Virus record (IMG/VR): IMGVR_UViG_3300025141_000018 | Strand: one strand, 5' to 3' | DNA from: a virus | Taxonomy: Duplodnaviria > Caudoviricetes | Length of the DNA: 64,000 nt | Part shown: positions 27,168-28,110 of the stretch, piece by piece | How positions within the stretch are numbered: position 1 is the stretch's first letter | Layout: each line of letters starts with the position of its first letter | Translations under genes and position numbers: made by a program | Notes under the pieces: generated by a model | The model's database searches: none | Told to the model about the DNA's origin: nothing | The model's input: only the letters and a program-made list of their open reading frames with translations

Positions 27168-27398
27168 TATAAGGCATTGGTGTACCTAATTTGGAGCCAA
27201 TGCCTTATACGAAGAATAAAGTCCTTAGTTCGGGCCTCAGGGCGACCCCATCTATTGTGCCGGCTAAGGATTACGATATTCTGTCGGCGTGACGCTATCA
27301 CACCCCGCAAGGGTCGAAAAAACCTTATTCGTTGTAAGGGGAAACACCCTATCACGTTTCATTTTCATGCGTAGGATCATAGTGAGAGCCTACTGCAT
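27168..27398 (-). ncRNA. candidate structured RNA between tRNA-Thr and tRNA-Asp
   Basis: GC-richer multi-helix segment flanked by two hairpins, one a perfect 13-bp stem. Confidence 0.5.
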
Positions 27399-27402
27399 TC
27401 TT

Positions 27403-27478
27403 TGGAGCTGGTGACAGGAATTGAACCCGTGACCTATTGATTACAAATCAATTGCTCTACCGACTGAGCTACACCAGC
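27403..27478 (-). tRNA. tRNA-Thr(UGU)
   Basis: GCTGGTG/CACCAGC acceptor stem, ATTGA-TTTGTAA-TCAAT anticodon arm, encoded CCA. Confidence 0.95.
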
Positions 27479-27480
27479 CG

Positions 27481-27807
27481 CTATTCAACACATCCTAATG
27501 TTTCGTATTTTATTTGCTTCCACGACTTTTTTTCTTCATTATATTTTAATCGTATCATGTTGCCGTGCTTATCACAGTGATGAGAATATATTGAATTTTG
27601 CATAGTAAAAAACCCAGCACTTGTTAATCCTTGTAATTTCTCTCTAGGCAAAAACTGTGAAGCAACTACCCACTTAGGTGGATATTCTTCTTCCATTGGA
27701 GCACATGCAATTACAAATAATACTCCGCTAATTATTAAGGTACTCTTCCAATTCGTTAAATTGACCAATGTACTTACCATCCATAATAATTTGTGGCAAT
27801 TTGCCAC
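27481..27807 (-). CDS. putative lipoprotein (true start probably a downstream TTG)
   Basis: Hydrophobic stretch ending in lipobox-like VIA-C. Confidence 0.5.
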   Translation of the reverse strand: MANCHKLLWMVSTLVNLTNWKSTLIISGVLFVIACAPMEEEYPPKWVVASQFLPREKLQGLTSAGFFTMQNSIYSHHCDKHGNMIRLKYNEEKKSWKQIKYETLGCVE

Positions 27808-27987: not shown

Positions 27988-28071
27988 TGGTGGGCAGGGG
28001 TGGAGTCGAACCACCACAGCATTAAGCGGCAGATTTACAGTCTGTTGAGCTCACCTATGCTCAGCCTCCCC
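27988..28071 (-). tRNA. tRNA-Tyr(GUA), with non-canonical positions
   Basis: CTGTAAA anticodon loop, long variable arm, GGTGG-TTCGACT-CCACC T arm, A73 and CCA. Confidence 0.85.
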
Positions 28072-28081
28072 ATTACTATAT

Positions 28082-28110
28082 AGTATATGATATTTACTAA
28101 TATATGTCGA
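28082..28110 (-). promoter_or_regulatory. sigma70-like promoter for the tRNA cluster
   Basis: ggTCGACA-N17-TATACT about 10 nt upstream of tRNA-Tyr. Confidence 0.55.

Follow-up and report, generated by a model that had tools for sequence, protein, structure and literature searches.

A conserved folded RNA of about 190 nt located between tRNA genes of uncultured marine phages

Background

Extra stable RNAs were recognized in phage tRNA clusters decades ago and, to our knowledge, none of rnaC and rnaD of T4, GOLLD and ROOL has an established function. With these examples, extra structured RNAs in phage tRNA islands constitute a known category. Transcription of the T4 tRNA region yields rnaC and rnaD, which have no known biological role (PMC3014915; PMC9697503). 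These species 1 and 2 stable RNAs are 139 and 119 nt long, and rnaD lies 1 nt past tRNA-Arg and is followed by rnaC. GOLLD and ROOL are noncoding RNAs of phages and prophages, of unknown function, that are often found near tRNA islands; one GOLLD example originates from a marine metagenome, where it lies downstream of tRNA-Met (PMC12286853). Furthermore, Y RNAs, which are bound by Ro60/Rsr, are small structured RNAs of bacteria and phages that work as partners of proteins and that tRNA enzymes can process (PMC4201824).

Here, we describe a folded RNA encoded by the spacer between two tRNA genes of a 64-kb stretch of DNA (hereafter the window), whose source appears to be an uncultured marine jumbo myophage. 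Like rnaC and rnaD, this RNA is small, is encoded on the strand of the tRNAs and directly follows a tRNA gene in a phage tRNA cluster. With its ~190 nt, it differs from GOLLD and ROOL, which reach ~580 to >800 nt, harbor multiple pseudoknots and form multimeric cages. Neither Rfam 15 nor the literature searched, which did not extend to the 2023 catalogue of ~10,000 candidate viral RNAs (PMC10690425), contains this RNA family. The category thereby gains a compact family whose fold is well defined, whose loops are sharply conserved and whose gene order (tRNA, RNA, tRNA) is simple. These traits make it a workable object for asking what the RNAs of tRNA arrays do.

Genomic context of the spacer

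The window has a G+C content of about 35% and its tail sheath protein is only ~35% identical to the sheaths of Rak2/121Q-type jumbo phages. The spacer (27164-27402, minus strand) consists of 239 nt between a tRNA-Thr(UGU) gene that encodes its CCA (27403-27478) and, downstream, a tRNA-Asp(GUC) gene (27087-27163). Both tRNA genes are on the minus strand, and ARAGORN and the Rfam tRNA model (76 bits for tRNA-Thr and 60.9 bits for tRNA-Asp) indicate that they are real. A preliminary description of the window had placed a multi-helix candidate RNA between them, and all the sequences that it quoted were found on the minus strand at their proper positions. A 21-nt piece of the anticodon arm of tRNA-Thr (27436-27456) is exactly repeated 1.2 kb downstream (26245-26265).

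On the minus strand, the gene order is tRNA-Tyr, a thioredoxin-like ORF, a lipoprotein-like ORF of 108 aa, tRNA-Thr, the spacer and tRNA-Asp. A sigma70-like promoter (TCGACA-17-TATACT, 10 matches out of 12; 28082-28110, minus strand) is found just upstream of tRNA-Tyr and is, judging from its sequence, a candidate start for the transcription unit of the tRNAs and the RNA. The tRNA-Tyr gene itself (27988-28071, minus strand) obtains a score of only 38.9 bits from the Rfam tRNA model, which flags four positions as non-standard pairs; this tRNA may be atypical. The lipoprotein-like ORF (27481-27807, minus strand) ends 3 nt before tRNA-Thr. Its family is small and well conserved, and its members have an invariant Cys after a hydrophobic N-terminus; 316 homologues were detected in marine metagenomes and the family has no match in Pfam or PHROG.

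Distribution of the RNA in marine phages

Homologues of the RNA were searched for in IMG/VR, in JGI/ENA metagenome contigs and in GTDB. A neighboring radical-SAM gene, used as an anchor in IMG/VR, led to L001 (91% amino acid identity) and to L002 and L003 (68%), which share the arrangement of tRNA-Tyr, tRNA-Thr and spacer. Another anchor, an ORF of the PEPCK_ATP family, led to L006-L009, and L007 carries a diverged copy of the RNA between tRNA-Pro and tRNA-Asp. Motif scans of IMG/VR, metagenome contigs and GTDB, filtered by eye or with covariance models, added L021, L027, L046, L047, L054 and L059 and nothing more, the remaining matches being chance ones in G+C-rich coding DNA.

All homologues found are carried by marine phage contigs and belong to only three lineages: lineage i (the window, L001 and L046), lineage ii (L003, L047 and the truncated L002) and lineage iii (L007, L021, L027, L054 and L059). 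Every RNA-bearing contig is phage-like, and Tara Oceans scaffolds account for at least one of them. In every lineage, the RNA is located inside a tRNA array and on the strand of the tRNAs, and across homologues it starts 4-6 nt past tRNA-Thr or tRNA-Pro. Lineages i and ii have tRNA-Thr as upstream neighbor. For lineage iii, 4 nt separate tRNA-Pro from the RNA, which stops ~5 nt before tRNA-Asp. On the 3' side, the RNA is followed by a hairpin and tRNA-Asp in the window and L046, by an ORF in L001 and L003 and by a run of tRNAs in L054 and L027.

Beyond these contigs, a blastn search with the spacer against GenBank phages gave no match, and the RNA is absent from 25 more distant loci anchored on the lipoprotein gene, from five partial genomes of relatives that were searched and from L006, L008 and L009. 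No second copy was found in the window. In L006 (2215-2466), tRNA-Thr, tRNA-Pro and tRNA-Asp are only 2-20 nt apart without any RNA between them, tRNA-Pro and tRNA-Asp being separated by 2 nt. Since this relative has contiguous tRNAs, the RNA is dispensable. The best explanation of our data is that the spacer encodes a member of a small structured RNA family, not catalogued before, which a narrow clade of uncultured marine jumbo myophages carries in its tRNA arrays.

A fold supported by covariation

The structure was drawn on the sequence of the window, a covariance model (R1) was built from the window and L001, and all homologues were aligned with cmsearch. The core used for R1 and for model R2 spans 150 nt (27210-27359, minus strand); the window scores 161.5 bits with R2, and homologues of the other lineages score 139-157 bits with the covariance model. 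Compensatory changes were already visible in a naive alignment of the window and L003. In the structure-guided alignment (A4), standard pairs fill 98.6% of the pair cells, compared with a mean of 76.5% for shuffles and 40-58% when partners are slid by 1-3 columns, and 21 of the 36 pairs have changed on both sides; the pairing is somewhat inflated because the alignment used for counting was fitted to the model, and the independent lineages number only three. When lineages are compared with each other, all of the 16-17 double changes keep pairing, except between L003 and L021 (18 out of 19). Furthermore, identity between lineages is 46-54% in paired columns versus 64-79% in unpaired ones, and the same helices emerge when the window and L007 are each folded independently by minimum free energy. 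Hence, this covariation indicates that the spacer encodes a real, evolutionarily conserved folded RNA. The multi-helix noncoding element that the preliminary description had recognized on the minus strand of the tRNA array is therefore genuine, and the analysis of relatives that it had proposed as a check bears it out, although part of the fold that it had drawn does not hold.

Folding energy was also considered. The whole spacer folds better than shuffles (z = -3.0 and -2.85 for the two strands), a difference that comes mainly from its two flanking hairpins, but the 150-nt core of the window taken alone does not (z = -0.44); the z values of this core are -1.8 in L003 and -2.4 in L007. As the core of the window is not unusually stable, the case for structure rests on covariation and not on folding energy. 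The minus strand is supported by the G-U pairs found in conserved helices (1-3 per sequence) and by the co-orientation with the tRNAs in every lineage.

The RNA is ~190 nt long, or ~235 nt when a lineage-specific 3' hairpin is included. Its 5' part folds into hairpin H1, after which come a P2/P3 domain containing a U-tract, hairpin P4 and the long P5-P8 arm, which bears a GUCG tetraloop. Model positions are numbered from 27402 of the window, which is position 1, and all the elements below are on the minus strand. H1 (27367-27398; model positions 5-36) starts 5 nt past the CCA of tRNA-Thr and corresponds to the hairpin previously noticed after this tRNA. A hairpin is present there in every lineage. 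Between lineages i and ii, H1 shows one compensatory change, TGCAGTAGG/CCTACGCA in the window being replaced by TGTAGTAGG/CCTACACA in L003, and lineage iii has an unrelated 13-bp A/U stem at this site. No pairing partner was found for the single-stranded linker between H1 and P2 (27351-27366), which is A-rich in all lineages. Lineages i and ii share GAAAC in this linker, and lineage iii has AAAAC or AAACU.

In the P2/P3 domain (27310-27350), P2 encloses the hairpin P3. P2 pairs AGGGT with ACCCT (27346-27350/27310-27314; model positions 53-57/89-93), and three of its five pairs have changed on both sides. P3 pairs CCTTA with TAAGG (27335-27339/27323-27327; model positions 64-68/76-80) and is paired in 100% of cases. 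Its loop is CAACGAA, in which ACGA is invariant, and it is followed by a T6 tract (27317-27322) that contains at least five U in all lineages. The next element, P4 (27286-27304; model positions 99-105/111-117), is a 7-bp hairpin that is also 100% paired and has four of its seven pairs changed on both sides. Its loop is TAGCG (UAGCN across lineages), with TAGC invariant. The hairpin GTGA-TAGCG-TCAC of the preliminary description is the inner part of P4 and shares its conservation and compensatory changes.

The long arm (27213-27282) is composed of four helices, P5 to P8, all of them 100% paired. P5 (AGAATA/TATTCT; model positions 121-126/185-190) has three of six pairs changed on both sides. 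In P6 (model positions 133-139/175-181), all seven pairs have changed on both sides, giving three complementary versions: TCCTTAG/CTAAGGA, AGCCAGG/CCTGGCT and CTTACTA/TAGTAAG. P7 (GGC/GCC; model positions 142-144/168-170) has two of its three pairs changed on both sides and P8 (GGG-GTCG-CCC; model positions 154-156/161-163, loop GUCG) one of three. The TCCTTAG/CTAAGGA pairing and the GGG-GTCG-CCC hairpin had both been proposed previously; they are conserved as P6 and P8, with compensatory changes in relatives. The internal loops AGA, CTGAG and GAA of the arm are invariant. Taken over the whole RNA, the invariant unpaired nucleotides include those of the P3 loop (ACGA) and of the P4 loop (UAGC) as well as AGA-GG-GUCG-CCUGAG and GAA. 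The CGA of the P3 loop might make a kissing contact with the UCG of the P8 loop; since both are invariant, covariation is uninformative here.

Three other parts of the architecture proposed previously were not retained. The helix GAATAAGG (27323-27330)/CTTTATTC (27214-27221), which was thought to close the whole domain, is paired in 71.7% of cases, as are shuffles, and shows no covariation. Its halves belong to P3 and P5: TAAGG pairs locally with CCTTA, and TATTCT pairs with AGAATA at 27277-27282. As this closing helix is not conserved, the G-U pair that it contains does not support the strand. The hairpin CCC-TTGC-GGG does not covary either and competes with P2, which does covary and uses its CCC. 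Lastly, the pairing of CGACCC with GGGTCG, viewed as a possible pseudoknot or switch, shows no compensatory change and has one pair broken in four of the six distinct sequences.

The hairpin located between the RNA core and tRNA-Asp (27167-27209, minus strand) has a 13-bp stem and a 16-nt loop. The perfect 13-bp stem reported before tRNA-Asp is thus real, but it is restricted to the lineage of the window, where it is found in the window, L001 and L046. The stem of L001 shows a compensatory change from A-U to U-A. The loop of the window is the exact reverse complement of the loop of L001 and L046, i.e. an inversion between the arms. This hairpin is possibly a 3' protecting hairpin or a quasi-palindrome acting at the DNA level. 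The inversion of the loop points to template switching at a quasi-palindrome in DNA rather than to a sequence-specific role of the RNA.

Comparison with known RNA families and coding potential

With E values up to 10, no Rfam 15 family overlaps the RNA core in the window, L027, L046 or L003. The sole Rfam entry within the spacer is a chance-level match to mir-239 (16.6 bits) on the opposite strand of the 13-bp hairpin. ARAGORN and the Rfam tRNA model (RF00005) detected only the flanking tRNAs and no cloverleaf in the spacer. When R2 was run with filters off on the T4 tRNA region, its best hit (6.8 bits, E = 0.16) was located outside rnaC and rnaD. No similarity of sequence or structure to these two RNAs was therefore found with R2, and homology to them was rejected. 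In addition, rnaC has a T-arm-like hairpin, GGGTTCGAATCCC, whereas the RNA described here has no tRNA-like module. GOLLD and ROOL gave no Rfam match to the spacer. The preliminary description had found no match to tmRNA, SRP, RNase P or a hammerhead core, and the Rfam, ARAGORN and R2 searches support the lack of match to a known family.

The preliminary description had also considered that the spacer might prove to be a degenerate tRNA or a short ORF. A tRNA, even a degenerate one, was rejected since neither ARAGORN nor Rfam at E values up to 10 gave any signal. Two ORFs of 38 and 68 codons overlap the RNA. A protein-coding gene was rejected because none of the frames stays open in all lineages and because lineage iii itself contains indels that change the frame. 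P3 and the U-tract that follows it were examined as an intrinsic terminator, and this possibility was rejected as well: the P3 stem has only 5 bp, two of them G-C, and a terminator scan found none in the spacer. Furthermore, P2 covaries across the U-tract, which argues against a terminator. The spacer could finally be devoid of function, as a decayed tRNA, a short coding gene or a set of chance hairpins, in line with the two overlapping ORFs and the ordinary stability of the window core; we give hardly any credence to this explanation given the extensive covariation, the absence of tRNA signal and the frame-shifting indels.

Possible roles of the RNA

Maturation of tRNAs relies on RNase P at 5' ends and, at 3' ends that encode CCA, on endonucleolytic cleavage of the trailer followed by trimming. 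Stable bacterial RNAs usually have a hairpin at or near each end. On balance, we lean towards the view that the spacer gives rise to a discrete, processed and stable RNA that acts in trans. It would be transcribed on the minus strand within a polycistronic tRNA transcript, from which host tRNA-maturation enzymes would excise it. An endonuclease acting on the short, A-rich trailer of the upstream tRNA would generate the 5' end of the RNA, and RNase P, cleaving at the 5' end of tRNA-Asp, would generate its 3' end. The preliminary description had proposed such a release by tRNA processing. The gene spacing of lineage iii (tRNA, 4-6 nt, H1, core, ~5 nt, tRNA-Asp) fits this proposal, as ordinary tRNA maturation would release the RNA from this arrangement; that the product is a discrete RNA is what we infer from this gene order. 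The RNAs of the T4 tRNA region are arranged in the same way (PMC3014915; PMC9697503). Once released, the RNA would carry a hairpin at or close to both of its ends: H1 would protect it from exonucleases at its 5' end and the P5/P6 stem, together with the 13-bp hairpin in this phage, at its 3' end. The combination of conserved loops with stems that covary points to a molecule that is recognized by a protein or by some other RNA. The mature RNA would then act in trans, most likely bound to a protein, or as a decoy, through its invariant nucleotides; the ACGA of the P3 loop, the UAGC of the P4 loop, the GUCG tetraloop and the AGA, CUGAG and GAA internal loops are candidate contacts.

One alternative, unlikely in our opinion though credible, is that the RNA is a cis-acting part of the tRNA precursor and not a free RNA. 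It could be a spacer that insulates tRNA folding, a guide for the order of processing or a put-like element causing antitermination through the hairpin-rich array. The constant proximity of the RNA to tRNAs of the same strand, always within a few nt, and the conserved P3 hairpin with its U5-6 tract inside the RNA would fit such a role, and no partner protein or target was found. Moreover, its domains follow one another in series without a closing helix and might therefore be separate pieces, or parts of the precursor that act in cis. However, invariant loops and junctions over ~150 nt combined with covarying stems exceed the needs of a passive spacer, the 2-nt gap between tRNA-Pro and tRNA-Asp in L006 shows that the array can do without it, and P3 is too weak for an efficient terminator. 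A role in cis could also be exerted on a gene: the RNA would be a riboswitch or 5' leader of the PEPCK-like gene, orphaned in the window by a 1.3-kb deletion. This is very unlikely. A 408-409-aa ORF of the PEPCK_ATP family does directly follow the RNA in L001 and L003, and the window lacks exactly this ORF plus tRNA-Ala. Nevertheless, in L006 and L007, the PEPCK-like gene comes after a tRNA and a ~35-nt leader that lacks the RNA, tRNA-Asp follows the RNA in the window, L046 and lineage iii, a run of tRNAs does so in L054 and L027, and no Rfam riboswitch matches. The RNA is therefore not tied to one downstream gene.

Other alternatives assign a precise activity to the RNA. It could bind a phage Ro60-like ring protein in the way Y RNAs do, as suggested by its context (a tRNA array of a large marine phage) and by a bulged double helix whose unpaired, purine-rich segments are invariant (GACAGA ahead of P5; AGA, CUGAG and GAA in the arm). 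Y RNAs were recognized by a tRNA-like module with T and D arms, a GNCGAAN0-1G motif near the 5' end and a Ro60/TROVE gene usually within 4 kb. The YrlA family (RF02553) has a tRNA-like domain, whereas our RNA has neither such a module nor a tRNA body; the Rfam YrlA model gives only sub-threshold hits, which lie on true tRNAs and not on the core. The YrlA motif GNCGAAN0-1G (PMC4201824) is absent in that form, RACGAR being found in the P3 loop and NGAA in the arm. The RNA has no closing stem, and the handle motif AACAGCAA or YACAGC is not matched in lineage iii, which has AACAAGAA. PF05731 (TROVE) is absent from two RNA-bearing contigs, each only 12-18% complete. We assign to a Y-RNA function the same low probability as to a riboswitch. 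Self-cleavage by a ribozyme of a new class that would help cut the tRNA array appears even more improbable. HDV-like ribozymes linked to phage tRNAs are known, the RNA directly adjoins tRNA ends, and its junction nucleotides (AGA, GUCG, CUGAG and GAA) are invariant, but no Rfam ribozyme matches at E values up to 10, nothing indicates a specific cleavage site, and a hammerhead does not fit since P7 encloses P8. Lastly, the RNA could be a decoy made by the phage, whose hairpin tips would imitate tRNA anticodon loops. The P3 loop, CAACGAA or CGACGAA, is identical to the anticodon loop of E. coli tRNA-Arg(ACG), CUACGAA, except at position 33, and the tip of P8 carries GUC, the anticodon of the neighboring tRNA-Asp. 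This resemblance is only a lead because it would arise by chance with an estimated probability of ~0.1-0.2, and we regard the decoy as rather unlikely, if somewhat less so than a riboswitch or a Y RNA. If it were true, the decoy could soak up a host anticodon nuclease or tRNA-modifying enzyme during infection.

Whatever the activity of the trans-acting RNA that we favor, the family raises the questions of its excision by tRNA enzymes, of its protein partner and of a possible protection of the phage translation apparatus.

Exchange of modules in the tRNA arrays

The order of tRNAs, small ORFs and PEPCK-like genes varies among the loci, indicating that these tRNA arrays are very fluid. The tRNA arrays of marine jumbo phages shuffle modules: the RNA, the PEPCK-like metabolic gene and individual tRNAs come and go. 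The PEPCK_ATP-family gene (PF01293, E ~1e-92), a candidate PEP-carboxykinase-like auxiliary gene of phages, is located inside the tRNA array at 5936-7162 in L001 and at 6016-7245 in L003. The window and L046 lack both this gene and tRNA-Ala, as a clean indel of ~1.3 kb positioned right after the 13-bp hairpin. In L001, the last codons of the PEPCK-like ORF overlap tRNA-Ala.
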